In this document: positions 19,161 to 62,600 of the stretch, piece by piece
Numbering within the stretch: position 1 is the first letter of the stretch
Layout of the letters: the number at the start of each line of letters is the position of its first letter
Origin: a virus
DNA: 64,000 bases
IMG/VR virus record: IMGVR_UViG_3300005077_000003
Span: 32,001-96,000 of that record
Strand: one strand, 5' to 3'
Made by a program: the position numbers and the translations under genes
Notes under the pieces: model-generated
Told to the model about the DNA's origin: nothing
What the model saw: the letters and a program-made list of their open reading frames with translations, nothing else
Database searches by the model: none

Positions 19161-19162
19161 CA

Positions 19163-19542: not shown

Positions 19543-19770
19543 ATGGATAATATTATATTTGCTAGTAGTATCATGGAAAATAACCTATCAACAACTGAGG
19601 TGTATGCTTATTTTACCTGTGACAAAGCTGGGTGCGGGAAACAAAATATTAGACTACTAAAGAAGTATAGAAGTACGGGTAGTGGTAATAGGCCTATTCT
19701 TAATAGCGATGACGTATGCGACTTTTGTGGTATGCCAATACATGAGCCAGCGTATATTGAAGTAAAATAA
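19543..19770 (+). CDS. small Zn-ribbon-like protein
   Basis: CDKAGC...CDFC. Confidence 0.6.
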   Translation: MDNIIFASSIMENNLSTTEVYAYFTCDKAGCGKQNIRLLKKYRSTGSGNRPILNSDDVCDFCGMPIHEPAYIEVK

Positions 19771-19775
19771 ATAAA

Positions 19776-40980: not shown

Positions 40981-42510
40981 ATGGCTTATCCGCATCTTCC
41001 TGGAGTTACGCTAAACTTAGCTGACCTAGGACTTAAGATTGCGCCACCGCCTGCTGGTCCTAAAGTAACTTTACTTGGTGTTACATGCAATACTGGAGTT
41101 CCACTACTAGAGCCATTATCAGTAACCAACGTAGGTAAAACTATTAATGCTCTATGGGCTTCTGGTGCTACATCATCATTAACATTCCCAAGTGAACTTG
41201 CTTTAGCGGTAGAAGAAGCATCCGCTGCTGGCGCTGAAAACATTGAAATATTAGTCATTGCCAATCCAACTGGCAATGATTATGACTATTGGATTGATCC
41301 AACAAGTGCTGTTGGACGATCTGCGCGCTTCTCGGCGCTTAGTGGAGCATATGATGTATTGCTTCAATCCAACGTAGACGTTGTTCATCCAGTAAATGCC
41401 TGGATTGATAATCCCGGTAGCACTATTAGATTTGGGAGCCAACTAGCTAATTTCTGTCACCAAAAATCAAAAGAGTTTGATAATACTTGTGTTGGAGTTC
41501 TTCCAATGATGACTCCAGTAGAGTGGGCTCAAACTATGACTGGCAGAATAACCGGTGGGGGTTTTAGCTTCTCTGCCACAGTTTCTGGAGAAATGTCGGA
41601 TGTTACTGGTGCAGCAGATAGATATTTTGGTTCTGCTTCAAGTGCACTAGTAACAGAATGGGCAAAATATGCTTCAAATGTTTCTGCAGATCCAACTTGC
41701 TATTATACTCCTGAATTCTCAGGTTACTTAGCAGGCTCTGAAGATACTACTAATACTTATTATCCAACAAACTATGAAAACGAAGCTACTGCAGTTAACT
41801 CTGCTTACTGGACATACTGGCAGGCGGTTGATGCTGATGGTACTGCAGCTACAGACCAAAAGGGAAATAAAGTTGACGCAGGCAGAAGAGTGTGCGTATT
41901 TGGATGCCCAGTAGTTACTAACGGTACTCAAACATCATTGCTCGCGGCTGGAGTTGGAGCATCGTTAACTAATACTGTTTATAACACCAATGGCGCTGCT
42001 GCATATGCTGCTAGAATAACTACACTAGCACCACAGTCTGCAACTACCAATAAACCAATTTACAACCTAACTTATTCGCGTCCTCTTTCTGGTTCGCAAG
42101 CTAATAAACTTGCAGGAAGACGTATTACCACCATGCACAATAGAGCCAATGGCTTCGTTGTTACTAGTGGTATAACTGGCGCCCATAACGTTAGCAAGTA
42201 TGTAAGATCTGACTTCGTAAGACTAACCACGATTAGAATCGTTGACTCAGTCGTTAACCTGACCAGATCAGTATCTGACAAATATATTGGCGAGCCCAAT
42301 ACTGCAACAGCACGTAATGCGCTATACAATGACATAGAAAAATACCTGAAGCAGATGCGCGTTGCAAATGCATTAAGAGGTTGGACTATGTATATTTCTT
42401 CTTCACCAGATCAACAAGTACTAGGTGAAGCTACCATTGACCTTACCTTAGTCCCAGCATTTGAACTTGTTAAGATCGAATGCAACATAGCCCTCGCTAA
42501 GAGCGTATAA
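40981..42510 (+). CDS. tail sheath protein
   Basis: LPGVTLNLAD N-terminus; LTTIRIVD, YIGEPN and IDLTLVPAFEL C-terminal sheath motifs. Confidence 0.92.
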   Translation: MAYPHLPGVTLNLADLGLKIAPPPAGPKVTLLGVTCNTGVPLLEPLSVTNVGKTINALWASGATSSLTFPSELALAVEEASAAGAENIEILVIANPTGNDYDYWIDPTSAVGRSARFSALSGAYDVLLQSNVDVVHPVNAWIDNPGSTIRFGSQLANFCHQKSKEFDNTCVGVLPMMTPVEWAQTMTGRITGGGFSFSATVSGEMSDVTGAADRYFGSASSALVTEWAKYASNVSADPTCYYTPEFSGYLAGSEDTTNTYYPTNYENEATAVNSAYWTYWQAVDADGTAATDQKGNKVDAGRRVCVFGCPVVTNGTQTSLLAAGVGASLTNTVYNTNGAAAYAARITTLAPQSATTNKPIYNLTYSRPLSGSQANKLAGRRITTMHNRANGFVVTSGITGAHNVSKYVRSDFVRLTTIRIVDSVVNLTRSVSDKYIGEPNTATARNALYNDIEKYLKQMRVANALRGWTMYISSSPDQQVLGEATIDLTLVPAFELVKIECNIALAKSV

Positions 42511-42523
42511 GGAGGATTGAACT

Positions 42524-43195
42524 ATGGCTAGTACATTAGATAGTTATACTAAGAGCTATAACTCATTCTCTGGTGCTGATATGGTTGTAACCTTCGGTAA
42601 ATATATTATCGGAGAGCTACAGGGTATATCATATACAATACAAAGAGAAAAGGCTCCACAGTATGTACTAGGTCAATCTGACCCAGTATCATTTTCAAGA
42701 GGGAAGCGCGGGATAGCAGGTTCTTGTGTATTCCTGGTATTTGACCGGTCTGCATTACTTGATGCGTTCCAGGATACGCCATTCTTAGCATGGGAGCATG
42801 AATTTGCTGCACTCGTATCCGATCCAATAGTAAGTGCGCCCGTCCTGATAACAGCAGGATTAAGCAGTGCTTCTTCTGGGTATGGTCAACCTCAAACCGC
42901 CAACTCTTTTGCGGTTGCTAATTCAATTCAAATTAGCAAAATACTTGCGCGCCCCGCTTACCATGACCAAGTATTACCATTTGAAATAGTGGTTACTGGT
43001 GCAAACGAGTATGGTGCTACAGCATCCATGAAAATACACGGTGTCGAAGTCATCAATGTCGGCTCCGGGTTCTCAATTGATGATATGCAAATTGATGAAG
43101 CTTGTACTTGGATAGCCAAGGGTATTACCAACTGGCGTCCAGGAATACAAATACATATTCCTAACTATACTCTACCTACTACTATCGCTGGCTAG
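42524..43195 (+). CDS. tail tube protein
   Basis: SFSGADM, GELQGISY.IQREKAP.YVLG, GKRGIAGS; follows the sheath. Confidence 0.85.
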   Translation: MASTLDSYTKSYNSFSGADMVVTFGKYIIGELQGISYTIQREKAPQYVLGQSDPVSFSRGKRGIAGSCVFLVFDRSALLDAFQDTPFLAWEHEFAALVSDPIVSAPVLITAGLSSASSGYGQPQTANSFAVANSIQISKILARPAYHDQVLPFEIVVTGANEYGATASMKIHGVEVINVGSGFSIDDMQIDEACTWIAKGITNWRPGIQIHIPNYTLPTTIAG

Positions 43196-43211
43196 ATGCT
43201 ATAACTATTTT

Positions 43212-43240
43212 GGGTAGACCCAGAAATGGGTCTACCCTTT
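43212..43240 (+). terminator. intrinsic terminator
   Basis: gggtagaccc-agaaat-gggtctaccc-ttt. Confidence 0.7.
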
Positions 43241-43247
43241 AATTATA

Positions 43248-44141
43248 ATGCCTTTATTTGATCCACAAACAGTTTTAGGTAAAGAAAAAGTATCATTTTC
43301 TGGTACTGATGTTAGCGTTGTATTTAGTATTCATGGCAGTATGCCATCGTACATAGCAGATAAGCGATACTTTAGATCAGCACAATTACAAACTATATCT
43401 TTAACTTCAGCAGCATCATTATTCCCAGTTCGCAGATGCGGAGAAGCATCTGCCACAACGCTCACAAAGGGTGCGCGTACGGTTGCGGGTTCTATGGTAT
43501 TTACCATACTAGGACAAGATCCTTTACAAGAAATATTTTCTATTGATGCAATAAAATCTGCAGCCAGAACAGATAGTTTATGGCACATAGATCAAATGCC
43601 ACCAATAGACTGTTTGCTAATATTTGCTACTGAAACTGGCGGTAGAGGATTACAAGTAATCCAAAACATGCAAATATCTAACTGGGGAGAAGTAGTAAGT
43701 ATTGATGACATGTATATTGAATCTAGTTATACTTTTATTGCTGAACATATAACTCCATTTTTGTCTATGGATCTTATGTCAGCAAGCGGCACCAGTAGTA
43801 ATAGGGTTGCTAAAGTATTAGAAGATAGAATGTCAGACATAAGATCTAATGCATTAACCCCAGATGATGCAGCTATAACTGCGATAGGTATTTCTCAGAA
43901 AGAAATAATAGATAAGTATGGATGGCATGCGCCTACTATTATGGCACAACTTGCTAAGGATGAATTAAAATTAAGAGCAGGCAAAGCTCTTAATTTAATG
44001 GATATAGGAGTCTCAAGACTTATAGATAATATAGAAACAGGTACAACAAAAGCTGGAGAAGTATATGCAATATGGACAACAGCACCAGAAATACCTTCAA
44101 CAATATTTGATCTTACTAATTTAAAATATGTCACGCGCTAG
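43248..44141 (+). CDS. tail tube-like paralogue
   Basis: SFSGTDV, LQTISL, GARTVAGSMVF. Confidence 0.75.
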   Translation: MPLFDPQTVLGKEKVSFSGTDVSVVFSIHGSMPSYIADKRYFRSAQLQTISLTSAASLFPVRRCGEASATTLTKGARTVAGSMVFTILGQDPLQEIFSIDAIKSAARTDSLWHIDQMPPIDCLLIFATETGGRGLQVIQNMQISNWGEVVSIDDMYIESSYTFIAEHITPFLSMDLMSASGTSSNRVAKVLEDRMSDIRSNALTPDDAAITAIGISQKEIIDKYGWHAPTIMAQLAKDELKLRAGKALNLMDIGVSRLIDNIETGTTKAGEVYAIWTTAPEIPSTIFDLTNLKYVTR

Positions 44142-44883
44142 GCATTATCCAACACCAATAACTACTACCTTTTACATAGGGCAGTATTTAATTGATGATG
44201 TATATAGGGTTGATTTTACAAGAAAAGTAACTCATCAACCAATATGGGGGTATGCCAGTAAACAATATGATTTTATTGCCAAAGGTAGAGAAATAGTAAC
44301 TGGCAATATTATAATTAACTTTAGGTATCCAGGCTATCTGACTAATGCCATTAAAGTAGCAACTCAAGATTCTGATACAAATAAAGTTCTAGTTAAATCT
44401 GGAATTAAAAAGGATTCAAAACAATCACTTGGAAACCTACTTGATGATATACACAATGTTAATAGTATTTCATCGGTAATGGAAAAAATAAGCAATATAT
44501 TGCTTGGCACTAAAATAAATAATTCGCAACAAGAGAATACCGCATCTCTTAGTAATATAAATGAAATAAACGAAACATATAATGAACTAAAAAAATCTTT
44601 AGTTGAGCGACATACTAAACAGTTTTCAAAACTCGATACTGGCGTTAAGCACTTAGAATCTCCATTATCAATAGAACTTCCTTTATTTGATCTTGAAATC
44701 CAGTATGGTTTCCAAGGAGTATCTGGTGGGTGGAGAAGAATATTTAAAGATATAACACTGGTTGGAGAGTCGCAAGTAATACAAGCAGGGGGAGATGGCA
44801 GCGGTATGGGTAGTAGTGCACAATGTTTATTAGAAGCATACCCATTTTTTGCATCTAGTACAATAGTTAAAAGGACAGTATAA
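44128..44883 (+). CDS. tail tube-like paralogue (diverged)
   Basis: FYIGQYLIDDV, PIWGYAS..YD.IAKGREIVTGNIIINF. Confidence 0.65.
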   Translation: MSRARHYPTPITTTFYIGQYLIDDVYRVDFTRKVTHQPIWGYASKQYDFIAKGREIVTGNIIINFRYPGYLTNAIKVATQDSDTNKVLVKSGIKKDSKQSLGNLLDDIHNVNSISSVMEKISNILLGTKINNSQQENTASLSNINEINETYNELKKSLVERHTKQFSKLDTGVKHLESPLSIELPLFDLEIQYGFQGVSGGWRRIFKDITLVGESQVIQAGGDGSGMGSSAQCLLEAYPFFASSTIVKRTV

Positions 44884-45239
44884 TGAATATGTTACCAGAA
44901 GACGTAAAGGAAGCCGCCGAAAAAGCAAAGGCCGATGGCTTCCGTCCATATTGGATTACACTTAATGGCGTTAGTTTTGTATATAGACCAATTAAGCGTA
45001 AAGAATGGAGAGAATTAACTAGAGCTCAAAATAAAGAGCTTGTTGCTTCTCAAGAAGATCCTCTAGAATTGGCTGAAATAAAGGCTAAATATGTTGAGGA
45101 AATAGTAAAAATGTGTGTTCTATGGAGCGAGCTACCTATTGATGACAATCTAGGTGCAGGCTATGTAGAAACACTTTCCGACGCAATCTTAATAGATTCA
45201 GGTTTTGGTTCTCCTGATGTTCCTTCAGTTGAAGTATAA
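44883..45239 (+). CDS. putative tail assembly chaperone
   Basis: Small acidic protein, FVYRPIKRKEW, precedes the tape-measure-like gene. Confidence 0.65.
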   Translation: MNMLPEDVKEAAEKAKADGFRPYWITLNGVSFVYRPIKRKEWRELTRAQNKELVASQEDPLELAEIKAKYVEEIVKMCVLWSELPIDDNLGAGYVETLSDAILIDSGFGSPDVPSVEV

Positions 45240-45874
45240 TGGAAAACAATGTACTGGATAAGTACACAGAGCTAATACTTCAAGGTAACAAAGACATATT
45301 TATTACCGAACTCGGGGGCTTGTCATTTATTTGCAAGCCCCTTACTTATTATCAGTATAAGCTTTGTTTAGATATAGAAAAGAATGTGGGCGCACCAGAT
45401 TCTAATGAAGCCATTCTAAAATTATCAATTATATTTCCAGAAAGGAATGAGTTAGAAAATTGGATAGATAGCACAAACGCCTGTTTCCCAGATATATTAG
45501 CAGATAAAATCCTAGCTAAATCTAGTTTTAAAAGCCAAGAAGATATATATAGCTTATATCTTTCATCCAGGGATGATGTTGAAAAAGACTTTATTGGCTT
45601 AGCACAAATATATATTTGCACCGCATTTAAGGCCATATCGCCAGCAGATATAGATAAAATGCCAATGAAAGATATTATGTGCCTACTAGTAAAGGCAGAA
45701 GAAGCTTTAGGTAAAAAGATTAATATAGAAGAATTATTTAATATAGAATCAGAAGGTAAACAAAAAATACCTATTCCTCCAGGAATGGAGTCAACTGCTT
45801 TTGATCCTTTCTCTAAAGAGTATATGTTAGATCCAGATAATGCGAGCCCAATACCACCAGAGGCATTCAGATAA
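45239..45874 (+). CDS. putative tail assembly chaperone 2
   Basis: FICKPLTYYQY parallels the previous gene; position. Confidence 0.6.
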   Translation: MENNVLDKYTELILQGNKDIFITELGGLSFICKPLTYYQYKLCLDIEKNVGAPDSNEAILKLSIIFPERNELENWIDSTNACFPDILADKILAKSSFKSQEDIYSLYLSSRDDVEKDFIGLAQIYICTAFKAISPADIDKMPMKDIMCLLVKAEEALGKKINIEELFNIESEGKQKIPIPPGMESTAFDPFSKEYMLDPDNASPIPPEAFR

Positions 45875-48800
45875 TGGCCAGGCAAGGAGAAGAGCCTAGG
45901 TATACTGGTCCACGCGAGGGTGAACTAGAAGCCTATAATGCAGAAGTAGATCAGGCCAATGAGCGTGATGCTAGTTGGCTAGCCAAAATAGCTATAATAG
46001 GTTTTGGTACACACGTACTAGGAAGGGCAGTTGGGCGAAATATAATTGCTGATATTATCCACACTGGTGGATTAATGTCCAAGTGGGCTGGCGGCCTCTA
46101 TAAGAGAAAAGGCAAATCTTTATTAAGACCAGAAGTATACAATAGAGTTGCTAGGGCTATTGATGATAATAGTGGCGTTTCTGGTGAGGTAATAAAAAGA
46201 ACCTGGGAAGGTTCAAACCTAGAAGAAATAGAGGGCGTAAGAAGGCTAATAGAGATGTCCTCTATTATAGGGGATCCTAAAAATATTACTTCCCGCCCTA
46301 GACTAATAGAGTTTTTTAAAGAAGAGCTCGCCAGAGATGCGCGGGTTCTTCAAAGACCAACACCTTTACAAAAAGAAATGTCGCATAGCCTAGATAGGCT
46401 AACCTTTGGTGACATTCTAGAAAATGAATCATATTTCTTTAGACCAAAAGAAATAGCAAAGTCATACCAAATAGAATCTATTAATCTTGCAATAGATCAA
46501 GGGCTTATAACAAAAGAAACAGTAGTAGGACCAAAACTATTTAAGCGCCTCGATAAACAAGGCAAGTTTGCATCACTAATAGATTTAAGACTTACTGATC
46601 CAAGATATGCACTTGAAAGTGCAGCTAAAATAGTTGGCGACGTAGCTGGTATATTTAGGGGTTTCGCGTCTTTATTTGGTAATGCCAGAACATTAGCTGA
46701 ACTACCAAGCGAGCATCCAGGTGGACCGCTAAGGGTATTTATAAAAGGACAAGCCGATTCTGCCGTAGCACCGCGCAGACCAACAATAAAAGGTCCATGG
46801 AATGATGCAGATGTATTAGCTTTTGATATAGAGACAAACAAAGCCAAAGCAATTAATGATGTAACAAAATTGCATATGGTTTCTATCGCCGCCAAAGAGA
46901 AGGGCGGAGCATGGAAGAGCTATACATTCTGGGATGATACTGCAGTAACCCACCCTGATGTTGTAAGATCTGGCAGTATACAAGACGCCTTAGATATACT
47001 AGAGGCTCATAAGGGTACATTATTTGGCCATAAGATTTTAGATTTTGACTTACCCGTAATTAAAAACTTACGCGGTGGGCTTACTATAGAAAGCGGCGCA
47101 GAAATAAGGGATACACTAGAAATGTCCCACGTTGCTTTTGGTACCTTTAAATCTGGAAAGCTACGCGAGATAGACAGACTAGCAGCTATAGGAAAAGAAC
47201 AAGAGTTCTCTGGACAAGTTCTTCATAAAATACCAAGCGAAATGAGGGGGAGACATTCCCTAGAAGCTTGGGGGCAAAGGCTTGGTAAAACTGCAAAACT
47301 GGAATATAAGGGCGACTGGTAAGCCCTAACGCCAGATATGCTTAAGTATGGATCGCATGATCCAGTAGTAACTGGTGACCTATTTGACTTTCTCAAAACA
47401 CTAGCTAAACCAACACATAAAGAAGTAAGCGCCACTGCTTCTATTGCTAAAAAAGCAGAAGACATTAAAGGAAGTGTCGGTAGAGTATATGAGTTTGTTG
47501 GTGATGAGCCTCCAAAACTAGTAGAATCTGGTGTTCGTCTTGGAGAAACCGGAGATATATTGTTCAAGCCTTCTGTTCTTAGAAAGCTCCATAGAGAAGG
47601 CAAATTAGAATCTATTTATACAAAACCCGGCCCTAATGCTACTTGGCTCCAAAAGTTACAACACAAGGCTGGTATAGGACCAGAATTCCAAGAGCGACCT
47701 GGTGGCTTTGTTCAAACACTATTAAGAGCAGTTAGGTCTATAAAGGCAATACATACTGGTGAAGCAAAGTTTGCTGGTAAAAGATATAAATCTAGTCCAA
47801 GCTCATTATTAAACGTTGTAGCTGGCAGCACAATACCACTAGAGGAAAGACTGCCTGAATATATTTCTCGTGGTAAATATTATAAACAAGCCGGTGAGCC
47901 AATAAAACCCGGGTTCTTTGATAGGATCAAAGCATACTTAGGGATATCTGAAGACGTAGATATAGTAAAAGCATCAGCTTTTGAGCCAGGTCGTATGCAA
48001 ATAGAAGCAGCAGATCTGCTAATCCCTCCAAAAACAGGTGGATTAAAACCACTTACTAAATCAGCATATTCTGCTACAGAAAAAACAATTGGCCCAACTG
48101 GAACGTTATCAGCCAGAAGAACTTCAGAATTTTATACTTCTAGTGCCAATCCTATAGATAAGCTATATGATTTTGCAAACTATTTAACAATAAGATTAAA
48201 TACATTAGCTAGCAGCCAAATGCTTGGCATAGGATACCGCGCATCAGGTAGCCTTACTGCTAATGCATTAAGATTGGCGGCAATCCCAGCAATATATATA
48301 GCTGGTACTGAAGCAATAAAATATGCTGATTATGAAATAGGCGAGCTAACAGGAGTCCGCCCATCATTCTTGGTATCAGATTTATATACTAAAGCTAGAG
48401 TACTACAACAGCAAGCAAGAGAAACCACTGGAATACGTAAAGGGGCAGAGACATTTGAGCTTACTTTCCCAGGCATAAGTGCCGGCCTAGCAGGAACAGG
48501 GCTAGCAGCCTTAGGCGCATTTGCTACCCTAAAAGGCACTGGATCATTTAAAGCCGCAGCTGCTGCTGGCGCCGCCATTTATTCATTGATAGGCGGCCCA
48601 GATGTAGCTCAAAAGCCAAAAGAATTAGAAGAGGAATATGAAGGCATACGCAAAGTGCCAGTAAGGTCATCTTCCTATTGGTTACTGGGATACGCTCCTT
48701 TTATTGGCGGCCACATAACCCACCATGAGCCAAGTTGGTATGTAAAACACAAATCGCAAGCGTATAAAACAAATATATATGGATCTGAAAAAGAATATTG

Positions 48801-51243
48801 GTCCAGCGGCACATTCTTACCAACGCCACAAAATTGGTTTGGTTTAAAAAATATAATTGATCCATATAAATTAGAAAGGGAAAACTACTACAGAAGGCCA
48901 TACCCTACTACTGCTGGCTGGGGAGAAGAGTTCCCAATTATTGGCCCATTAGTAGCAGATACAATAGGTGAGATATTTAAGCCTCGTGTAAGAATGCATG
49001 AGGAAGACAACCAACGTGTTGTAATAAGCAACTTACAACAAAGAGGTGCGCCAAAAGATATTGCATCATATCTCGGTATACCAGAATTGCCAGTATCAAT
49101 TGTAGAATATGGCAAACCTGAAGTATTAAGAGAAAGGCTTAAAAAATATGCAAATGTCGCTTTAGAGCCTGCTGGTATATGGAAGTTTGCTTTACAATAC
49201 TTTGGTATTAGTTTTGACGAAGGATATGAGGAAGCTACTGCTTCTAATATGGGATCCATATCAAGAAGATTCTATGAAGCAAACCTGGGCGGGGCATTCG
49301 GAGAAAGTGAATTCCTTAGGCGCTTCCTACTATCTGATTATGGTAGGGCTTCAAAGTTCAACCAACAATTAAATCCAATACCAAACTATCTTCCTAGATG
49401 GCTACCTGGATCATTAAGCAACTTCGAAGAAGACAGAGCTGCATTCTATGATTTTTCTCTTGGAGATGCATATACCAAGATACAAGGCGGGGAATATAAT
49501 TTACCTGGTGTTGGATATGAAAGCTATACTCCGCTACACGGTAAAGAAGCAGAAAGAGAAGAAGAGAAAATTAAATTTACTGCTAGAGTAGTTAAAGTAG
49601 TTGACGCTGATACTGTTGATATATCAATTAATGGCGGCAGACAGCGTATACGTCTAGCAGAAACTATGGCTCCAGAGAAGAATACGACAGAAGGTCAAAT
49701 TGCTATAGCAGCAATGAAATCTTTGTTGTCTCCTGGTGACAATATAACAGTAGAAACTACAAGAGACGAATTTGATTCTGGTGAATCTCAAGGCCCTTAC
49801 GGACGGACTATCGCGCGTATTTGGAAGAATGGCCTGTCTATTAATAGGGCAATGGTAGACTCTGGACACGCTACACAAATAGATTCAAGCTATGATGCAG
49901 TAGACAGATTCTTAATACTATCCAATATAGCACCATTCTCAAGAGCTTACAAAGATGCAGAACGCCAAGTTCGCCATATGCATCTTACAGAAGATTGGCA
50001 GGCCAGGGTTAATGCTGCCTATGAAGAAAGAGAGGCAAAAGTAGATAGGTTAGGGCTAAAAAAGTACCTACAAGAAGAAGCCGAAGCAGCTAAATTAAGT
50101 CCTCAACTAAGAGTCATAAGAAGTACATATCAATCTGTACATGAGAATCTACTTTCAGAAATACCAATAGTTGGATCAAAGTTTTTCCCAAAAAGAAATC
50201 CAGTTGATTTATATAGGAAGTTTGAAGTAGAAGGATCTGGCTTTGCAAACTGGGAAGAGCCATATGAAACCATATTACGCCCAGCTATATATGATATAAT
50301 TGGAAACAACCCAGTAATAGCTACAGCAAAAGCAGGTGGTTTAACTTGGCTAGCATCATCCTCTATGGGTAAATGGCTAAATCCAATAAGCGCCTTAGCA
50401 TATCCAGCAAATAGAGCTGCCACAATAGCAAGTGCCGCCGCAGTAGGTGGCGCGTTGTCAACTACAAGAATGGTTGCTACCGGCAAACTGGAAGGAGGAT
50501 TTACCCCGCCTCATATTGAAGAAGAGAGAGAAGTAGAAGAATATTTTGATCAACTAAAATATTTAAAGCATAGAAACTTAGAAGAAGCCGCTAATGATGA
50601 ACAGGCATACCATGTAGCAAACTATGCTAAAAAGCAATCGCGCAAAACATTGTTATATGGTCTACATGCACTAGAAACTAAAGGAAATATATTTGCTTAT
50701 AAAGGAGCACTTAAATCTAAAGAGAGGGCTTACTTTGAGGCCTTTGTAGAGGCTCCAGAAGAGGACAGGAGTGACATCCTATCAATGACCCCTGACCATA
50801 TGAAACGCGCGCTGGAAGCAATATGGGACCGCCAGCGTAAAGATAGACCGCCCGTAGAAGAACAGGCAGAACAATACTGGGATAAACATGCTATGCCAAA
50901 GCCGACGTGGATAGGTTGGCACCCAGATATTGATGATGATGAGGTAAGAATAAAAGCTATTGAGGGTGGCATAAATGGTATTTCTGATAATTTACAAAGA
51001 TTTGGTTATTTCCCCTCACAAAGAAGAGAAGTAAAAGCCAGATTTGGCTACCTTACTTCGCCAGTAGATGATATACATCCAGCAAGTAAAACATTTGAAT
51101 TACCATGGAAAGTTAAGAAGAGAGGAGGAAATATACTTAGCGAGTTCAATTTTGGTGCTGGCGCTGCAATTAATTTATCTAATATTAATATATCAGATGA
51201 TCGCAGTGAAGAGATAGCCTATTTTGCTAATTATATTAGATAA
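45874..51243 (+). CDS. tape-measure-like giant virion protein with embedded DEDDy exonuclease and SNase-like domains; one in-frame TAA at 47320-47322
   Basis: ORFs 45874-47322 and 47338-51243 are in the same frame; the stop falls inside the exonuclease domain and there is no SD before 47338. Confidence 0.75.
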
Positions 51244-54200
51244 TGAGTATAATAAATGAAATTATAGCATCCCTGATAGGTGATGAAGGGAAAGCTGCAA
51301 TAGGCTATGCTTCAGTAAGCACGAACAGGGTTAGACCTGCTCTAGACAAAGTAGGCATAGAGGCATCTCTTGGCAGTACCAGAGTAAAGTCTATTAGGGC
51401 AAAACAGTACTTGACTACTGATTTTGGTGAGTCTAGAACAGCGTCTACTTTAGTAAAACAGATTGGCATTAAAATGCCAGAGACGCTTACTTCTGTTATT
51501 GGGAAAACAACAGAAGAAAATATACCAAAAGCTCTGTTTGTATACGACGTAGAATTCTTTAAGAGAGCTGCTCTACAAACTGGCGCTAGGCCAAAAAGTG
51601 GTATGGCGCATCTTATAGATGTAAAGCAATTAGTTTTACAAACACTTCCAGAGCTTGCTCCCCAAAACACAAGGATTGAGAACGTATATAGGGCACTGGG
51701 GTTAAGGGGCATAAGCATCCCCGAAGGTAGGGAATTTTTTACAAATAAAGAACGCCTTCAAGCAGTAGAAGAAATAGTACAAGAGGTTTTTTCAAGATCT
51801 CCTGTAGAAGCAAAAAGATTTTTAGAAAGATCTGTCGGACGCCGCTTTGGGATAAATCCACTTGATAAGTATGCCTCATTAATTGATGAGCACCCTTTAC
51901 AAAAGCTTATTGGCCCGGAAACGCTTAACGTAATCCCAGTTAAGAATAAGCTAAAGTCAACTGTACATGTAAGCAACCTAAAATCTCTTAATGAGGGATT
52001 AGTACCGATATTAGAATCTAGGTTTGGGAAACCATTTGCGGAAACATTCAAAACCTTTTCGCATAGATTATTTGAAAGCGTTGACCGCCCAGGAGACGTA
52101 TCCTTCTTACTAACAGGCGGCAATAGACTATTTGTTGGTGTTACTGGTGTAGCCAGTACATACGAAGAGCTTCCTACCCAAATAGGCGGCCTTATAGGCT
52201 ATAAAGGCAAACTGGCTTCTGCGCGCAATATTCTTATAGAGTCAAAAGAAGAAGGCGTTAAAGGAGTAAAAACACTAACAGAAGCTTTCTTTGATGAATT
52301 CATTAAGGGCGTAGAAGAGTATGGAGAAGGTGGTAAGAACGTTACCGCCGCCTTAGAAAAAGGTAGAAAACAAGCTCTTGGTACAGAGCTTTTACCAGGC
52401 TTAAGATTCAAAGATATCAAGGGAGCAGTATCCACATATGGCGATATAAGTTTCCATCAAGCTGCATATATGCAGCACTCTCTTGTAGTTGGCAAAGAGT
52501 CTATGCCACTGCTAGATGAGGAGATTAGGGAAGCTTCACTTAAGGCACAAACATTCCAGGTTACTAAGGAAAGTACTACAGAAAGACTATTAAAAGCACA
52601 AGAAGCAGATCTCGCTAAGCTTGAAGCCAAAGGTATAGAACTCCAAAAAATAACTGGAAGTGATGTTACCATAGGCAAAGAAGGGTATGAAATGATAAGC
52701 AATAAAACAGGCTTATCATTAGCCCCATACTCTTCAATAAGATCATATTTCCCTCCTGGTGCACAAACAGAAAGAGATCTATCAAAGGGAGCCTATCAAC
52801 TAGGTGGTATCAAGGAGACGTGGGAGCCACTAAGACATAGAGTTTTAGAACTTACCAGAAGAAGGCTAGGTCTCACAAGTGCACATCCAGTAGGTACTAC
52901 AATAGGAGTAGTGTCCGAAGAGCAGACTATGCACCAAATGCTTAAGTCTGCTACTGGGAAAGCTGTGATCGAAAAGCCGCTACTTATGTGGCAAGGCTTA
53001 ACCACAGTAGTAGCTCCAGGAGAAAGCCTAAAAGTAAGGAGCATGCTTGGTGATCAAGGTGCTATACTTACTCCTATAGGAAGATTATCTACTCAGAAAA
53101 GAAGAGCACTAGTAGGTACTGAAGCCGCGCTCAATGCGAGCGATTTAATAGATACTATTCGCACCCTTGCTGGGGTAAGAAAAGGAGAAGAATTACCTAA
53201 ACAGTGGAGCAATATATTAGAAAAAGCTCTACAGCAACAAGAGGTCTCTATTAGAGATATTGGCGAAGGTATAAAAATAAAAGGGAAAAGCTCTCTTGTT
53301 CCAAGGGGTGCAGAAGTACTTACTGGCATCTCATATGACGACTGGAATAAAGTATATAAATTTAATTGGAAGACCAAAGCAGGTAGCACATTAACAGAAG
53401 CCTTATTACTAGACAATCAAAGAATAACAGCTAGCGTAGCTGGTGAGTCTTTTCTAGAAGAGCTATTCGGAACTAAAGCCCTAAGAAGTGATATAATCAC
53501 TTCTTCTGAAACCTTTGCAAAAGCAGGTAAAGCCAATATACTTTATACACATATGCTTGGTCTGCTTGGCACCGAAAAGCTACAAAAAGCTGGTGGTGTA
53601 GCAAGGTTCTTAAGGTTATATGAAAAGCATGGCGGTAAGGGATTAGAAAGGGTAGGCAGAAAACAGCAGATCATAGCGACTTCTGAATTTTCATTTAAAA
53701 ACTTCCTTAGCCAAGGTGCTATAGAAGGGCCTGCTGAAAAAGCTCTATCTGAAATGGGCGCATCAGTAGCGCAAATATATGGACTTGCTAAAAGCTCTAC
53801 AGAGTATGGGGAGAGTATATATGAACTTTTCCCGCAAGCTATTAAGCCTGGTCCTAAAGGACCAGAAGTAAAAGGCACTATTTTAGATGAAATAGGAGCA
53901 AAAACTCTTCCTACTTTAGAGGAGCTTAGAGAGGTATCTATGAAAAGCAATATGTTTGCTTTCATAACCAATATGGCAAATAGAACCTCTGAAGTAACTG
54001 ACTTCTTAAATTCTGAAAAGTCATTTAGAATGAGACTCTTTACTTTGCATCAAATGGGTCAATCTCTACCAACTATGTTTGGCCTAGAAAATCCAATGCA
54101 ACATCCTATATATAGGATGGAAATAGAACATCTACAAGAAAGTGTGCCGGGATTAATCTTGAATCCTAACGCCAAAGCAGCTATTGGGAAACCAGGAGGA

Positions 54201-56663
54201 GAAGCTTTCGTAAAACAATTACCAAGAGACATTAAAAATGTGGCATATGCACTCAAATTACCTGCTCTTGAAAAGCTGAAAGTACGTGGCGGCAAAAAAT
54301 ATTTTAAAGGTGTAGAGGTATTAACAAGACAAGAGGCCGCAGAAAGATTCATAAATGCTCCTGGCGGTATAAATGTACAAATGTTAGAAGGAGAAATGAG
54401 TGCCAAAGAGCTTTTTGAAAAAGAGCTCTTAAGAAAGGAAAGACCCGGGTTCTTCCTTCATACTGGAGATACGCCATGGTTTGCGCCAGAAAACCTCGAA
54501 GCAGAAGGCAAAGTTATGAAGGCCTTGCCAGTTAGGGGTACATATATACCGTCTGGTGAAGAACTAAGAAGAATGATAGGACAAGGGGAATTTCCAAGAG
54601 GATCTCTGCTGCATTCTATGGTATCATTGCTACAGCAACCTAATGCAGTATATGGAGCCAAAGAACCTAGCGCAGCAACTAGTGTTACAGTAAGAGGTGC
54701 ATTTGAAAATGTATGGAGGTGGTGGGCTAAAGCTGGAGCAAAAGGCGGCTATTTCCATGAAACTAAGCTTACTAGCAAAAAAATGCCTGGCTCTGCCAGG
54801 GTCAGGCTAACACAGAAAATAGCAAGTAATCGTTCAGAGTTTAATCTTATAAACTCTATGGAGGACATTTATTCCGTTAAAATACAGAAAGATACTCTCC
54901 ATAAAATGGCAAAAGAAATTGCAATAGCTGAGGGTGCAAAAACTCCAGAAGAATTACTTGCAATAGAGGAAGACCTTATTGAAAAAGCATCAAAAGGAAA
55001 ACTATATGGCGCAGTTACGCCAAGACCTCAACATGCTCCATCACATCAAAGGCTGGTAAAATTACAACTTATAAAAGAAGAGGTTACAAAGAAATTAATA
55101 TATGCTGATCAGGCTACTGCAGGAGTTAGTCCATACTTGGCACACGAACTAAGTAGAGACTTTGACAAGGACGCAATAGAAGTTGCAATAATAAGAGCTA
55201 GGCATCTCAAAGGAACTGTCGACCCAGAAGAACTTATAAAGAAGCAGTATGAGATGTCTGCATCACAAAGGAAGCAGTTTGATAGACTAAAAATAGAAGC
55301 AGATAAAGCTCTTTCCACTATAGAAGAAACATTGGAAGGGGCAACAAAAATAGAACAAAAACAGCTGCTAAATAAATATGCGCTAAAGTACTTTGCATTT
55401 GGTAGGACCCCGGCCCTATCACAAGTAGGCTCTTGGACAACCCTTGCATTTGCTCAAAAGATAGCTGATACGGCTACTAGTGAAAAACAAATTGCTGAAG
55501 AGCTAAATAGATTGTTTACAATTTCTGCTGGCGGTGAATATACAGAAGGAATCATACAAAGATATAGAGATATTTTAGGAGAAGGGTCCGAAGCTGGATT
55601 TGCTGGTAGAGTAGAGCGCGCCATAGAAATGTATAGAACTCCATTCCAAGGCGCTCTTACAAAAGCAGGAGAGATTAAAGACTTGCTTGATGATTTCCTA
55701 AATATTCCCGGCATTATTAAAGAAAGAGCAGAATCTTATGTAGTTGGTAAGGAAAAACCATTAATAGAAGAAACCATAAGTATGGTTGAAGAATATCTAA
55801 CTAAAGCCCTTGGAGCTACAGATGAGGAAGTTCTTGGAAATATAGCCACAGGATATGGAGAATACTACGTAAGAGAGGCAGCAAAATCAGCAACTAGTGG
55901 AGTCAAGAAAGCCATCACCAGATTAGCGGCAGAAGATCTTGGCACCGTTATAGGCGTTTCTGCTATTGCAATGCAGAGACATCACGGCGGGAGAGTAATA
56001 GGTAACCCAATGAGAGACGCTTTCCAAAAAGTAAAAGGATCAATGGCGTCTCTGTGGTCGTTTGTTACTGGTGAACCAGTTCAAAATATTAGAGAGTCCA
56101 TGGTAGAAATTGCTATGGAACATAGCGATAGATCTGCTGAAGAACTTGGCGAAAAAGCTGCCAAGGTCATGGAAAAGACCATAGACAAAGCAACCACTAA
56201 AGCCAGCAATATTCTGAAAGATTCAGAAGTACTAAATGATATCTCTGCGAAGATGAAAGGTAAGTGGGGATTAGTTGCTGGTATAGCTGCCGGGCTATTT
56301 GTTTTGCGAGAGTTAAGCGGAATAGTTTCTGATGTTGGCGGGTTTGCCGGCGGTAGTGCTCCTATCCCAAGACAGCCACTGCTGTCATTCCCAGAAGTGC
56401 ATAATTTATTCGATAGCCAACAACCTACTGCCAACGTAATGCCGGTTGAAGGATATAACTCTTCACTAAACTATCAAGGTGGTGGCTATCAAGATGTTGA
56501 AGATATCACAGATAATCTAGGTGAAATCACAAATAGAGGTGCCAACTTCTCTAATATAAATATCAGAGATAGCAGAAAATACTCTAGTAATTTTGCTATG
56601 TCACAAGCATACAAGAAACAGGGTGTTAGTGATTTTACACACCAATATCAATATAATCAGTAA
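51243..56663 (+). CDS. 1806-aa giant virion protein, candidate single-chain two-barrel RNA polymerase
   Basis: KGGYFHETKLTSKKMPGSARVRL and GVSPYLAHELSRDFDKDAIEV resemble beta-prime motifs; upstream beta-like segments. Confidence 0.65.
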   Translation: MSIINEIIASLIGDEGKAAIGYASVSTNRVRPALDKVGIEASLGSTRVKSIRAKQYLTTDFGESRTASTLVKQIGIKMPETLTSVIGKTTEENIPKALFVYDVEFFKRAALQTGARPKSGMAHLIDVKQLVLQTLPELAPQNTRIENVYRALGLRGISIPEGREFFTNKERLQAVEEIVQEVFSRSPVEAKRFLERSVGRRFGINPLDKYASLIDEHPLQKLIGPETLNVIPVKNKLKSTVHVSNLKSLNEGLVPILESRFGKPFAETFKTFSHRLFESVDRPGDVSFLLTGGNRLFVGVTGVASTYEELPTQIGGLIGYKGKLASARNILIESKEEGVKGVKTLTEAFFDEFIKGVEEYGEGGKNVTAALEKGRKQALGTELLPGLRFKDIKGAVSTYGDISFHQAAYMQHSLVVGKESMPLLDEEIREASLKAQTFQVTKESTTERLLKAQEADLAKLEAKGIELQKITGSDVTIGKEGYEMISNKTGLSLAPYSSIRSYFPPGAQTERDLSKGAYQLGGIKETWEPLRHRVLELTRRRLGLTSAHPVGTTIGVVSEEQTMHQMLKSATGKAVIEKPLLMWQGLTTVVAPGESLKVRSMLGDQGAILTPIGRLSTQKRRALVGTEAALNASDLIDTIRTLAGVRKGEELPKQWSNILEKALQQQEVSIRDIGEGIKIKGKSSLVPRGAEVLTGISYDDWNKVYKFNWKTKAGSTLTEALLLDNQRITASVAGESFLEELFGTKALRSDIITSSETFAKAGKANILYTHMLGLLGTEKLQKAGGVARFLRLYEKHGGKGLERVGRKQQIIATSEFSFKNFLSQGAIEGPAEKALSEMGASVAQIYGLAKSSTEYGESIYELFPQAIKPGPKGPEVKGTILDEIGAKTLPTLEELREVSMKSNMFAFITNMANRTSEVTDFLNSEKSFRMRLFTLHQMGQSLPTMFGLENPMQHPIYRMEIEHLQESVPGLILNPNAKAAIGKPGGEAFVKQLPRDIKNVAYALKLPALEKLKVRGGKKYFKGVEVLTRQEAAERFINAPGGINVQMLEGEMSAKELFEKELLRKERPGFFLHTGDTPWFAPENLEAEGKVMKALPVRGTYIPSGEELRRMIGQGEFPRGSLLHSMVSLLQQPNAVYGAKEPSAATSVTVRGAFENVWRWWAKAGAKGGYFHETKLTSKKMPGSARVRLTQKIASNRSEFNLINSMEDIYSVKIQKDTLHKMAKEIAIAEGAKTPEELLAIEEDLIEKASKGKLYGAVTPRPQHAPSHQRLVKLQLIKEEVTKKLIYADQATAGVSPYLAHELSRDFDKDAIEVAIIRARHLKGTVDPEELIKKQYEMSASQRKQFDRLKIEADKALSTIEETLEGATKIEQKQLLNKYALKYFAFGRTPALSQVGSWTTLAFAQKIADTATSEKQIAEELNRLFTISAGGEYTEGIIQRYRDILGEGSEAGFAGRVERAIEMYRTPFQGALTKAGEIKDLLDDFLNIPGIIKERAESYVVGKEKPLIEETISMVEEYLTKALGATDEEVLGNIATGYGEYYVREAAKSATSGVKKAITRLAAEDLGTVIGVSAIAMQRHHGGRVIGNPMRDAFQKVKGSMASLWSFVTGEPVQNIRESMVEIAMEHSDRSAEELGEKAAKVMEKTIDKATTKASNILKDSEVLNDISAKMKGKWGLVAGIAAGLFVLRELSGIVSDVGGFAGGSAPIPRQPLLSFPEVHNLFDSQQPTANVMPVEGYNSSLNYQGGGYQDVEDITDNLGEITNRGANFSNINIRDSRKYSSNFAMSQAYKKQGVSDFTHQYQYNQ

Positions 56664-59600
56664 TGACCTTAAATATATTTGATGAGACTGGTATTGAAAG
56701 ATCTGAGCAGACTCTTACCAGTGAGCAGCTAGCTGCAGCGCATGCTTCTACTAGGAACCTTGGTACTCCTATTAGAAGTACGTATAATACTCCATCTACT
56801 AATAGAAACAATCCAGTACTACCACCTATCAAACATACTGTTTACGGTAAAAATCCTGGTTCATTAGCTGCCAAGGATCAAACCTTTTTACAGATAGGAC
56901 CACATATATATGGTGGTGAAGTACAGGATATACAAATATTAGAGAATAAGGCAGTCGCACAATTTCTTGGTGTTAGAACATCAGCAGACTTTTTAGTTGA
57001 TAGCGGAGATGGTGATGCAAATATAGTTATTAGTTTACTATTTTCTGGAGTAGAACATATCTACTCTGGTTTAGTACCACTTATAGCTTTATTTAAAATA
57101 TCTCCGCTAACAAGTATAAAAAATGAGATGATAACATCATCTCTATCAAATGAATTTGTTGATAATATTGCTGATGGTGCGACAAAGCTTGCTCTAGATA
57201 AAGCTGACGAAATAATAAACAAAGCTTCTTTATATGAAGCATCAAGTATATTTATAGAGAATATTAGGCCATATTATGATGGCATACTCCCACAGGTTGT
57301 TAATTTAGAGTTTTTTAACAGTTTTAGAAATAATCAAGATTATAATAAACTACCCATGTGGGGTTACTATAACTGGGATACTTATGATGATTTTATTAAC
57401 TATAAAGCATTACCAAGATACAGCAACTCTGAAAAACTTAAATTAGCTTCTTCGGAAGAATATACTGAAAAACTTAAGAAGAAGCTAGTAAACAGAAAGC
57501 CCTCTAATTTCGTTCCGGTAGCTTTTACTGATATAACAATACAAACACATACTGAACTATCTGATACACTAATAGCCCGCTTAGTGTTTAAGAGGGTAGA
57601 TGTTTCTGCTTATAGCTCAACTAGTTTATTATATAGAAGTGCTAACAATACTCCTACAGATGATCCATTGAACGCCTATTGGCTACGTAGGATGCTAGAT
57701 CTTTATATAAACAAGTATTTAGATAAGAGCTATGTATTTGCTAATATGGGAGATGGGATAAGTGAAGAAGTATCACTAAGGTTTGCAGGCAATGATATAG
57801 TATTAAATATATTTAAGAAAGAATATAATCTAAATAATCTTGTGGTACAAGATACAGGATCAAATAGAGATTCTGTTGTAATGCAAATGCAAATTGCATA
57901 TGGTAATAAATTTTCTTTTGTAAGAAGGGCGGGTACAAGCTTCCCAACAGCACAGTTTATGGGCTATGGTAGTGGCACCTGTGCGATGGCTATAAAAACA
58001 AAGTCTGCTGAAAAGTTTAAGTCCATACATGCATACAAATCTGCCGCCGACTTCTTTATAAGAACACAAGATAGATTTGATAGATTTACTGGTTGGGAAA
58101 TAAGATCATCAATAGTTAAGATGTTTAATACATCTAGCTTACCCAATTCTTTACCAAATAAGCCAGCAGAATTTAAATCAGCATGGTATCCAATACAAGT
58201 ACAGTCATCTACTGATCCAGATTATCCTAATGTAAAAAATATATCTATAACATTTAAAGAAACAAACCCGGATTTCTATTCTGATTTTGGATTTTCAGTA
58301 TATAGAAAAGGATATCGCCTTGATAACCTAAGAGATTTCTTTAATGAAATATGGGATAGAGCAGTAAGGTATAGAAAAGGTGAGGGAGATTCTTTAGACA
58401 TTACTGCACATACAGCAGTATTTGGTACAGGAGATCCATATGAACTAGAATACAGTATGGTTAATGAAGATACTATAGCTGCTGTATTCTATAACGCATA
58501 TAGATTTAATACAAAAAGTCAATACTTCTCTCCAGAAGCTAATGATATTAGTGAAAAACTTTTTTCAAGACTAATGTACAGTAAAAAGTTTTCTGGATTT
58601 GAAGGATCATCTGTTACACTACCAGAGCATTTAAATAATGAACTTGGAGAAATCTTATCTCCTTTTGAATTAACTAGTGATTTTGAACTTAATAATGAAA
58701 CATTTGCAAATCTAGCTACTCTAGTAGCTGACTATTATTTTGATGTAGATGACACAGATGTATATAATGGTCTTGTAAATGCTATAAATAAAGTAGCATC
58801 TGGAGAATCTGGCAGAAGGAGTTTATATTCATATATATACCAACACATGGATATATTAATGAATAATGAATTTAGAGACTCTCTGTTTGCAGTAATCGCC
58901 AGAAGACCAAAGCCAGAAGTTAATGAGCATCAGTATAGCCTACACGGACTAAGTTCTGCGTTTTCGACACTGTCGCTTGTTTTGGAAGCAAAAGGTAAAG
59001 AACTATTAAGTGACGAATCCTACAGTGCACTATCTCAAACAAAAAGAGATGAAACAAAAATAATATTGGATTCTAATAATACGCAATCTAGAACAGAAAC
59101 CGCAACAGCATATCCAGATTATTTTAGAGCCACTTATGGTGAGCTGTTTAATGTTGTAGATGGCAACCCATTATATTGGAAAAACTTTGCCCCTACATTT
59201 CAGGATATGGGCATAATAAATGCCGATCCAAAGTTCTTAGAAAAGTATGATAGTTTTACAGAGTCGTCTGTTAAAGATGCGCAAAATCAGACTATAGCTA
59301 CTATAGATAGTCCAGTACCACCAAGTATAATATTCTATCACGAAAGATTATTAGACAAAGAGTTTATGCATCAGGTAGATGAAGATGTGTCTAACTATCA
59401 TGACAAACTTTCTAAGATGCGCATGTATATATCTTTTGATATACAAAAAGTATTAAAAGATGAATATGGCAGATATCTTGGGGAGAATGAAAACTTTGAC
59501 CAGTCTAAAATAGACGGATTAGCTGACGTAATAGAAAAAGGATTACAAAAACAAAACTCTTCTAAGAGCAGACAAGACTATATCAAATCAGGCGGTTTAC

Positions 59601-62600
59601 TTGTAAATGATTTACTTGATCAATACAGTAAGCAAAGGGGGGTTGATAGAACCGAAGTAATAAAAAAAGATTCATCATATAGAGCTGAATTTGAAAAGCA
59701 TATTAGAGATATACTTGATGGTAAAATAGAAAATTACAGTGATTATGATTTTAACAAAATATTGACCCCATTCTTAATTGGTACTAATATAAATGCTCCA
59801 GTAGCAAAGTGGAAATCATATTCAAGCGTTATTGGCGAAGGTATATCCAGAGGAATACTTAAAGGTGCTGGAGCAAACGTAGACTTGTCATCGTTTTTAG
59901 ATAATACATTAGTAACAACTGAAAATGGTGGTGTTACTCTTTCATGTGCAAATAGAGATGAAGAAAGAGTATCTATGTTAAAAATTATGCAGCGAGTCGC
60001 TGATAATTCATACTCTATGATAAGAGCATTCCCAACTATGAGATTATATCTTATAGAATTTCTTGGGCCTAGAATAATAGTACAAGATAACTTTTGGGGA
60101 TATAATGCTATTATATCTATGGACATAACTCTTGATAAAAATGATGCAGATCTAGCTGTAATAAGAATAGCCGACCCCTTCCACATATTACAAGGTTCCG
60201 CATTTGGTTCTGAATGGGCTGGTGGAGATACTGTGGTTGATCATATAGCTGTTCCAGTAACAAATGATGATCCATCACAAGGAAATATACTAGAAAGAAT
60301 AAAACTAAAAGTTGGTAGAGCAATTCAGATACGCGGCGGCTATTGCGTGGACGATAGGACCGAAATTCTCACACAAAGAGGATGGCTTACAAAGGACGAG
60401 TTAAAGGTTGGCGATATGTCTCTAACTCTCAACCACAATACCGGCTTATCTGAATGGCAGCCAGTAAAAGAGATCCACGTTTTTCAGCATGATGGCCCAA
60501 TGGTCTCTATAGATGGCAATAGGCATTCGTCTCTAACAACTTTAGGGCACAAATGGCCCGTCATCTATAAATCCAGAATGATAAATAGAAAGACCATCAA
60601 AAAGGTTAGAGAGTGGACTACTTCTGAGAAATTAAATGGCGCCCACATTCTTATCGGCGGGGCGAAGCATAATAGCGATATAAAAGAAAAAGTATATAGC
60701 GATGCCTTTGTTGAAATAGTAGCATGGTTTTGGACAGAGGGAAATATAAGAAACAATATAGGAATAAAAAGGGCTCCTATTATTAGGATATCTCAATCTC
60801 CTACTGCTAATCCAGATAATGTAAAAAGAATAAGTGCAGCTCTGGAAAATGAGTTTGGTAAACCAAGTGATAATATTAGTTCTGGTAATAGAATATCTCT
60901 GGGTGTCCCAAAATGGAAATCAAAAAAAAGACGTACTAGGAATGAGATTGTATTTAGTTTGAATAAAGCTGCTTCTGCTTTAATACTAAAGGTTGCACCA
61001 GGCAAGGTAGTGTCTAAAGAGTTCATACTTCAGCTTACCCAAGATCAGCTTGAGCTATTTGTCCAGATCTCTAACAAGGCTGATGGTCACAATAGTAAAT
61101 TAAATGATAAAATACTATTGTCACAAAAAAATCCTAAGTTTTTAGATGCGCTGGAGCTCGCAGCTATTCTCGCAGGATATAGAACTCATAGATACTTTGC
61201 AAAAGCAAGCTGTCAAGATCGTAGAGGTAACTGGTATCATCCTGATAGACTAAACATAAGCCCTAAAGTCAACATTTGGGTTGATACTTCTAGACCTGAA
61301 GTAGTAAACTACAAAGGCATTGTATGGTGCCCAACAACAAAAAATCATTCGTGGATGGCACGCAGAAATGGACACTGCTATTTTACCGGGAACAGTAGTG
61401 ATCCTGAAAACTTAGATATTATATTTACAGGTAGAGTAGCTGAAGTAGAATATGGAGATATCATAACTATAGCGGCACAAGGCTGGAAGTCAGAACTATT
61501 AGGTAGAACAGTAGAATTCCAGCTTAATAATAGGAATGAAAGTTCTGTTAAAGATTTAGTTGTAACGACTATTCAAAAAGCTTCTCCAGGAGGAATTGGA
61601 GAAGAATACTCTGGCAAAGTCACTGACGTTCTTACTTCAATAGGAGGTAATCTGCCAGCATCTCAAGCTATATTTAACTCACTACTAAACAGTAGCGGGA
61701 CTGCCGTAGGAGTCCCAGGTTCTGGCGGGACAGCTGGTATAGGTACTATTATAGGCAGCTGGAGATTCCTTAAAAATCTAGGGATGGGCCTAGATACTAG
61801 GCTAAGAAACATATGGATACCAGATAAAGACAGGACGCGACTTGACTATTTTGCAGATATATCTGATACAGGTTGGGAAGGCAAACACTGGGTATTCCCG
61901 CCTACGGATGCGTGGGAGATATTACAAAAAGCCACTAATTATACATGGAGATATATTTGTCAAGTAGTACCATATGAAGGAGAAGCCACATTATTTTTTG
62001 GGAGACCAGATCAACTCTATTACCATAGAGACGTAGATACTCGCCAATATCAAGCACAGGATAAAAGAAGAACTGCTTATAAAACAGAGTTGACAAAACT
62101 AATATCTGAAGTGATTGAACAATGGTATTCTACGTTAAACCCTGTTGTATCAAATAAATATTCTGATGGATATGAAAATCCAGGCGTAACGCTTCCCGCC
62201 CTTAATAGAAATTCGTATTATCCTTTATTTAAAGCTAGCTTCTATAAAAATTCAATATGGGATGTATTTAAATCATATAAAGACTTAGCAACCATATATA
62301 AAGTAGAAAATAGCTGGATTGCTCAAGCATCAAAGGACATATTAAATGTAGATGTTTATAATGATTTTGAAACTATTATAGAGTATTTTGGTGATCCAAT
62401 AATCATATCTAAGTTACTTCTTGTAGAGTTCTATGGGCTTAATTATGATTATGTAGAACAATATTTAGAACCTTATGTTTTATCATCTGTTATAGCTAGA
62501 AAGCTAACTGAAAATGACCTAATATCACTAAAGAATACTTTAGTTGAAGAAACTAATAATAACAAAGTTAGTGATGTTTTAGAAAAAATAAGTGCTTTAC

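Follow-up and report, generated by a model that had tools for sequence, protein, structure and literature searches.

How does the proofreading exonuclease of a DNA polymerase come to lie inside a virion protein, and why is there a stop codon in its midst? The question was raised by a locus in the IMG/VR virus record IMGVR_UViG_3300005077_000003, a 177,611-bp sequence (CheckV completeness 92%) that belongs to an uncultured, contractile-tailed, 0305phi8-36-like myovirus. The window that was analysed is a stretch of 64,000 nucleotides, bases 32001-96000 of that record, and the positions below are those of the window, on its plus strand unless otherwise stated. At this locus two open reading frames (ORFs), 45874-47322 (482 residues) and 47338-51243 (1301 residues), lie in one frame, separated by a TAA at 47320-47322 and four sense codons, and when read through they give a product of 1789 residues. 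The upstream ORF, which ends in the TAA, encodes the conserved N-terminal 293 residues of a protein like gp145 of Bacillus phage 0305phi8-36 followed by the first 189 residues of an insert, and the downstream ORF encodes the end of the insert and the remainder of the gp145-like scaffold. The insert carries a 3'-5' exonuclease of the T7 DNA polymerase type that is found in no known relative of the host protein. The explanation we favour, and consider reasonably probable, is that of a long-resident module whose frame is interrupted in this sequence, either by a nonsense mutation of recent date or by a base-call error.

Identity of the Exonuclease Domain

An initial annotation, made from the letters alone, had described a T7-polymerase-type exonuclease domain split by a single in-frame TAA, and the layout of the two ORFs and the stop was reproduced in our analysis. 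The exonuclease core occupies 46822-47403 and is homologous to residues ~3-180 of T7-like family A DNA polymerases, as established by tblastn, phmmer, the PHROG 17 profile and a fold match. Its motifs were all found where they had been placed: ExoI, with its D-x-E in the sequence FDIET (46825-46833; D318 at 46825-46827 and E320 at 46831-46833), ExoII, in the sequence GHKILDFD (47032-47049; catalytic D392 at 47047-47049), the HSLEAWG block between ExoII and ExoIII, and the ExoIII Y-x3-D (47347-47361; Y492 at 47347-47349 and D496 at 47359-47361). As ExoI and ExoII precede the TAA and ExoIII lies 3' of it, the Y-x3-D is not on the same polypeptide as the other motifs in the annotated arrangement. 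In an alignment of 44 sequences (A1), D318 and E320 fall in the invariant columns D25 and E27, and Y492 and D496 in the invariant columns Y199 and D203. The set of acidic catalytic residues (D318, E320, D392 and D496) is thus complete, as had been claimed, but ExoII agrees with the canonical motif only in part: its catalytic Asp is present, and Lys (K387) takes the place of the near-invariant Asn that at least 90% of relatives have.

The searches behind this assignment gave scores far above chance. The upstream ORF matched PHROG 17, labelled 'DNA polymerase', with an E value of 8.8e-13, and also PHROG 403, labelled 'DNA polymerase exonuclease subunit'. The absence of any DnaQ-like profile hit had been named as the finding that would speak against the domain. 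The curated profiles gave a mixed picture: PHROG 17 was matched as above, and the Pfam family PF01612 scored 16.6 bits, below its 23.6-bit cut-off; that family also missed, at E≤0.001, three genuine T7-like polymerases from among the relatives. Comparison with isolated phages by tblastn returned 404 records, nearly all of them T7-like DNA polymerase genes, with alignments that run from residue ~315 to 505-520 and hence across the stop at 483. A phmmer search of 1.84 billion representative sequences produced 413 matches at E≤1e-3, whose alignments also cross the stop, the best foreign matches (E 3e-15, with identity of up to ~40%) being to residues ~3-180 of metagenomic PolA proteins of 590-680 residues. 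The nearest relatives of the domain are PolA proteins, whose C-terminal part matches PF00476 (DNA_pol_A), and some of the matches are short, free-standing exonucleases. In the opposite direction, tblastn of PolA proteins on this genome gave an E value of 5e-22, again across the stop.

An AlphaFold2 model of the insert, with X at the position of the stop, had a mean predicted local distance difference test (pLDDT) score of 83.5, and a Foldseek search of the Protein Data Bank (PDB) with this model returned T7 DNA polymerase chains as the best matches (E 5e-8) and the Klenow fragment next. The domain is therefore a T7/PolA-type DEDDy 3'-5' exonuclease with a DnaQ-like fold. It has the same fold as T7 gp5 (PDB 2ajq, 6p7e) and other T7-like family A polymerases, and ExoI D-x-E, the ExoII Asp, the HSLEAWG block and the ExoIII Y-x3-D follow one another in the same order as in gp5. 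It differs from gp5 in that it is not joined to a polymerase domain and sits instead in a virion protein, has Lys for Asn in ExoII, contains no cysteine, and is interrupted by a stop.

An Insert Found in One Lineage

The segment that sets this protein apart extends over 46753-47484 and corresponds to residues 294-537 of the read-through product, that is, 244 residues made up of a 20-residue linker, the exonuclease domain and a tail of ~25 residues. The read-through product has 14 homologues of 1433-1866 residues (33-51% identity), each of them one unbroken protein. All 14 align to residues 1-293 and 538-1789, in pairwise and multiple alignments alike, with nothing opposite residues 294-537, and they read straight through the conserved FIGG(N/D)|VFE junction at which the insert sits here. 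A profile scan of IMG/VR identified 80 related loci, in none of which was the insert matched. The six of these with a recognisable N-terminal part were contiguous at the junction, with no room for an insert and with unbroken genes, and at one locus (L006) the matches on either side of the insertion site abut. A search for related loci with the insert itself as query found no insert-bearing relative, megablast of 12 kb against isolated phages found no match, and a search of 5.8 billion protein clusters found no free-standing N-terminal piece besides the window's own ORF. The exonuclease is an insert unique to this lineage among known relatives and absent from every homologue, and on that account the initial annotation, which had read the domain as part of the protein in which it lies, was incomplete.

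An intein, an intron or an assembly chimera was also considered, in which case the segment would be absent from the mature protein. Mobile elements abound in the genome (a LAGLIDADG match in the terminase, HNH matches in ribonucleotide reductase and endonuclease-family matches in the primase-helicase), and one homologue of the host protein, P0016, has an intein elsewhere in its gp145-like sequence. However, the insert is joined in frame on both sides and is native in composition, nearly the whole of the insert is exonuclease-coding sequence, no Hint or intein profile matched it, and no intron match was found in Rfam. The insert also lacks a terminal His-Asn, begins with Ala, and is followed by Val rather than by Cys, Ser or Thr. 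We regard a splicing element or a chimera as having next to no chance of being the answer.

According to the scheme we favour, the N-terminal DEDDy proofreading module of a T7-like family A polymerase would have been taken up by a gp145-type giant virion protein in this single lineage, and would have entered in frame at the FIGG(N/D)|VFE junction. A free-standing exonuclease of the T7/PolA type would be an alternative donor. Free-standing T7-type exonuclease subunits (PHROG 403; P0034 and P0035) belong to the same family, have ~190-240 residues and are encoded by a separate gene, which makes them a plausible source; they are replication proteins, whereas the copy here is embedded in a structural gene. 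A donor within the phage's own genome was considered and rejected, as the genome had no match to PF00476, PF01612 or PF00136 and tblastn located no PolA polymerase domain in it. The phage's own replicase is a PHROG 405 polymerase, and the module is therefore foreign to the replication set of this phage. No meaningful direct repeats that would represent a target-site duplication were found around the insert, and a BLAST hint that its tail repeats the segment before the insert was unsupported at the DNA level. Two antisense ORFs at the locus, 47223-47603 and 46497-46895, had no family match, and scans for promoters and terminators gave results at chance level only.

Composition and Residence of the Insert

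If the module is foreign in origin, its composition no longer gives it away. Its G+C content of 0.421, and of 0.299 at third codon positions, is typical of the phage's structural genes, and its codon-usage distance of 0.386 compares with 0.431±0.070 for native segments of the same length. Its cysteine content is equally in keeping with its surroundings. There is no cysteine in the insert or in the whole 1789-residue product, nor in the 13 homologues that are free of an intein (of 14 compared), nor in the adjacent protein of 1806 residues, whereas 2-7 are present in the sheath, portal and capsid proteins. The exonuclease domains of 43 relatives have a mean of 2.8 cysteines and only two of the 43 have none, and the insert has Met and Gly in the two columns of the exonuclease family where Cys is usual. 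The loss of cysteine as an adaptation of the insert to its host protein is suggestive, at about p 0.04, which is not proof. Native codon usage, retained catalytic residues and absent cysteine together argue for a long residence, during which the module would have taken on the codon usage of the phage and the Cys-free composition of the host protein while its catalytic residues were kept. As an observation in its own right, the Cys-free composition of both the 1789- and the 1806-residue proteins fits an unfolded exit from the particle or the crossing of an oxidising compartment.

A long residence need not mean a useful one, and the insert might instead be a decaying passenger, which never was or is no longer a nuclease and whose loss the stop would have carried a step further. 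It is known from one genome only, the stop lies inside the domain, and at columns that are at least 80% conserved it has nine mismatches, as compared with 3.3±1.9 in its relatives, a number that exceeds nearly all of them and includes the ExoII N->K and a D136->K change. Decay is nevertheless hard to reconcile with the retention of the four acidic ligands and the Tyr, with the absence of a frameshift over the 732 nt of the insert, and with a confident structural model, and the native codon usage and the lost customary cysteines point to long selection within the host protein. Furthermore, the stop also cuts the conserved scaffold and hence is not neutral. That the insert is a mere passenger accordingly appears rather improbable.

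The In-Frame Stop

In alignments the TAA at 47320-47322 occupies, with no gap, the variable column just after a conserved Trp. In an alignment of 36 sequences that Trp was present in 32 of the 35 relatives, and the next column contained Glu in ten, Asp in seven, Ser in six, Lys in five, His and Ala in three each, and Gln in one. Glu, Lys, Ser or Gln, all of which have a codon that a single base change turns into TAA, thus account for 22/35. The initial annotation had proposed a comparison of sense codon with conserved stop at this position, and the sense residues above come from relatives of the exonuclease domain, no insert-bearing homologue of the host protein having been found. In the AlphaFold2 model the position falls in coil just before the ExoIII helix. 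The stop would accordingly be a single-base replacement of the codon of a variable loop, for example GAA, AAA, CAA or TCA, in a module that had until then probably been a working part of a particle protein, where it may have bound or trimmed 3' ends.

Programmed readthrough, which had been raised as one of the possible meanings of the TAA, would yield a short form with a dead exonuclease and a long form in which the exonuclease is complete. The frame stays open past the stop, homology extends over it without a break, the full-length protein is needed in all homologues, and the local RNA fold has a slight advantage in stability over shuffled sequence (z -2.1). Even so, eight of 200 shuffled sequences reach the stability of the native one, and Rfam has no match at E≤1 in 45500-48500. 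TAA is an ordinary stop in this genome, as had been stated: it is the commonest terminator, ends 89 of the 157 ORFs, and is used at the end of the gp145-like gene itself and by its neighbours. The genome encodes three transfer RNAs (tRNAs) only, for Arg, Leu and Met, and no suppressor tRNA was found among them. A UAA followed by G, as here, is an efficient terminator in bacteria, and known cases of phage readthrough use UGA. With TAA as the main terminator, no suppressor tRNA and a weak local fold, the TAA is most likely not a recoding signal, and programmed readthrough is unlikely, indeed very much so. Ribosome hopping was also considered and rejected, since a landing site at UGG would not lie in the right frame.

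Taken literally, the genome would make two products, one of 482 residues that would have no ExoIII and hence no complete active site, and one of 1301 residues that would arise by termination-reinitiation at an AUG 15 nt downstream of the stop, in an operon that often uses stop/start coupling. The ATG in question (47338-47340; Met489) corresponds to a conserved Met of the ExoIII region, and is therefore there by descent. A motif check upheld the earlier remark that no Shine-Dalgarno motif precedes it; many other genes of the operon have none either. The TAATG overlap occurs at five gene starts, and there are nine other same-frame ORF pairs in the genome, each separated by one stop. Such coupled starts and single-stop pairs make termination-reinitiation plausible for the downstream part, and the 1301-residue product is plausibly expressible in that way.

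It is a further step to propose that the split is functional, i.e., that TAA-12 nt-ATG is a real gene boundary and that the exonuclease fold reassembles non-covalently from the coupled products, so joining the two halves of a virion protein. The stop is at a permissive place, in predicted coil before the ExoIII helix, a conserved Met codon lies five codons past it, ExoIII is preserved downstream, coupled starts are common, and the genome has the nine other ORF pairs. Yet no other lineage has a two-piece version of the protein, the ATG is present by homology and is not visibly selected, no Shine-Dalgarno motif serves it, and the proposal rests on a single sequence. A functional split is therefore doubtful, and a nonsense mutation or base-call error in a long-resident module is the explanation to which we return below.

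The Host Protein

The initial annotation had called the host protein tape-measure-like and structural. The 1301-residue part matches virion structural proteins of jumbo myoviruses, among them ORF145 (gp145) of Bacillus phage 0305phi8-36, to which it is homologous in five collinear segments (E 7e-22 to 8e-8). The annotation in the record for gp145 states that mass spectrometry detected it in virions, and by that homology the structural part of the claim is borne out. Gene order is also common to the two phages: sheath, tube, tube paralogue, one gene, two genes in chaperone position, the gp145-like gene, a giant gene, and a hub that includes cell-wall-degrading parts. In both, two chaperone genes precede the gp145-type gene, and the putative tape measure and the hub follow it (PMC2147016).

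The comparison puts 'tape-measure-like' in a different light: the term suits the position roughly, and the gene lies before the one in gp146 position. In 0305phi8-36 the tape-measure role was assigned to gp146 on the basis of tail length (PMC2147016), and a search for tape-measure profiles on the gp145-like protein gave no match. The gene that occupies the gp146 (putative tape measure) position by synteny is a giant ORF at 51243-56663, which encodes the Cys-free protein of 1806 residues; BLAST found no similarity between this protein and 0305phi8-36 gp146. The host protein, judged from homology and synteny, is thus a gp145-type virion protein that precedes the gene in tape-measure position and is not clearly the tape measure itself. 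0305phi8-36 gp145 has no exonuclease-domain match by BLASTP and no Pfam domain, and is one unbroken ORF.

Upstream, at 40981-45874, are the sheath, tube and tube paralogue genes, an ORF of 251 residues and two small ORFs in chaperone position, which the gp145-like gene directly follows; the group includes a match to PHROG 16991 (E 6.6e-50) and is ordered as ORF139-144 of 0305phi8-36. The tube and its paralogue (42524-44141) both match PHROG 9206, 'major head protein', a label that looks wrong by synteny with ORF140/141 of 0305phi8-36. The protein in hub position (56663-64000 in the window, with the ORF continuing to 64504; 2613 residues) has an endolysin-like segment at residues 2195-2381 (PHROG 20474, E 2.8e-23), and 0305phi8-36 gp147 likewise has an endolysin-like segment.

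The exonuclease is not the only insert that this type of protein has received. A second one in the same protein, at 49552-49884 (residues 1227-1337), is a module resembling staphylococcal nuclease (SNase; PHROG 452, E 6.6e-15), which is common only to the two closest homologues, P0004 and P0005, both with PF00565. The 12 other homologues run straight through GYEAVN..LHSG|YD.VD at that site. At what we take to be the position of Asp40, the Ca ligand of staphylococcal nuclease, the three SNase-like modules have Met, Phe and Met, and the module may bind nucleic acid without cutting it. In P0016, residues 904-1330 constitute the intein with a LAGLIDADG endonuclease, at a site that differs from those of both inserts. 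PF12705, the family used to look for a Cas4-like nuclease, matched only small open frames (67-456 residues) in five related viral records, and in G004, the one record in which the match was compared with the gp145-like locus, it lies ~60 kb from that locus; P0018 and P0019 had intein domains only. A Cas4-like insert was thus not seen in these relatives. The gp145 scaffold therefore accepts varied inserts: three lineages have an SNase-like module, one has an intein and one the exonuclease. In this it resembles the Sle1-type, tape-measure-related effectors of contractile injection systems (PMC13277306), which are likewise long tail-module scaffolds with lineage-specific functional inserts, with the difference that delivery is putative in the gp145 family. 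In the literature that our searches returned for tape measure proteins paired with exonuclease or nuclease domains, we found no PolA-type proofreading exonuclease described in such a protein.

A Putative Virion Protein with a Replication Domain

Several observations weigh against the explanation given above. The presence of the protein in virions is predicted from one distant homologue only. The domain is unusually divergent at conserved columns, including the change of the ExoII Asn to Lys, which leaves nuclease activity uncertain, and it may be inactive. Scans for exact patterns around the stop, in viral and metagenome contigs, produced no second copy, so that an allele and an error are not distinguishable, and the long intact ORFs elsewhere (up to 2613 residues) argue that the assembly is accurate and a random error at this point less likely. 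ExoIII, finally, is well preserved past the stop; this would be expected if the stop arose very recently, and just as much if a split or read-through protein is still under selection. These points temper the account of a resident module with a recent break. The domain, the insert and its uniqueness, the host family and the kind of codon change are shown, whereas the gp145-like protein would be a component of the particle, may pass into the cell, and may have carried what was once an active nuclease.

A bolder reading combines several of these elements. The particle protein would carry a working DEDDy 3'-end exonuclease, or a clamp, beside the SNase-like module, would be made as two coupled polypeptides that refold together or by occasional readthrough, and would accompany the DNA on its way down the tail; early in infection it would then process DNA ends, protect them, or attack nucleic acids of the host. 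We would give this only a slim chance of being correct; if it were, the Cys-free composition would reflect passage in an unfolded state.

The broader relevance of the locus is that a growing view regards proteins of the tail lumen and tape-measure region as vehicles for enzymes, which reach the cell together with the phage genome. It shows that the gp145 scaffold takes different nucleic-acid modules, of which the SNase-like one occurs in a small clade and the polymerase proofreading domain in a single genome. With an insert that has apparently been remodelled to the Cys-free composition of its scaffold, it offers a testable case of the recruitment of a replication domain into a virion protein, whose value is limited in that it is one metagenomic sequence and the domain is broken in it.

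Other Features of the Genome

The large terminase (25433-28420; 995 residues) contains a LAGLIDADG_3 domain, probably an intein. Two further genes outside the window have similar features: the large subunit of ribonucleotide reductase (G000:C1:172990-177393; 1467 residues) has an HNH endonuclease segment and the primase-helicase (G000:C1:160184-163840; 1218 residues) has extra endonuclease-like segments, which in each case suggests an intein. A protein of 472 residues, also encoded outside the window (G000:C1:6176-7594), matches PHROG 2825, 'polymerase', and a reverse-transcriptase family. Within the window, 12001-20000 stands out by its G+C content of 0.46-0.51, as compared with 0.35-0.40 elsewhere, and contains only short ORFs between divergent blocks of genes.

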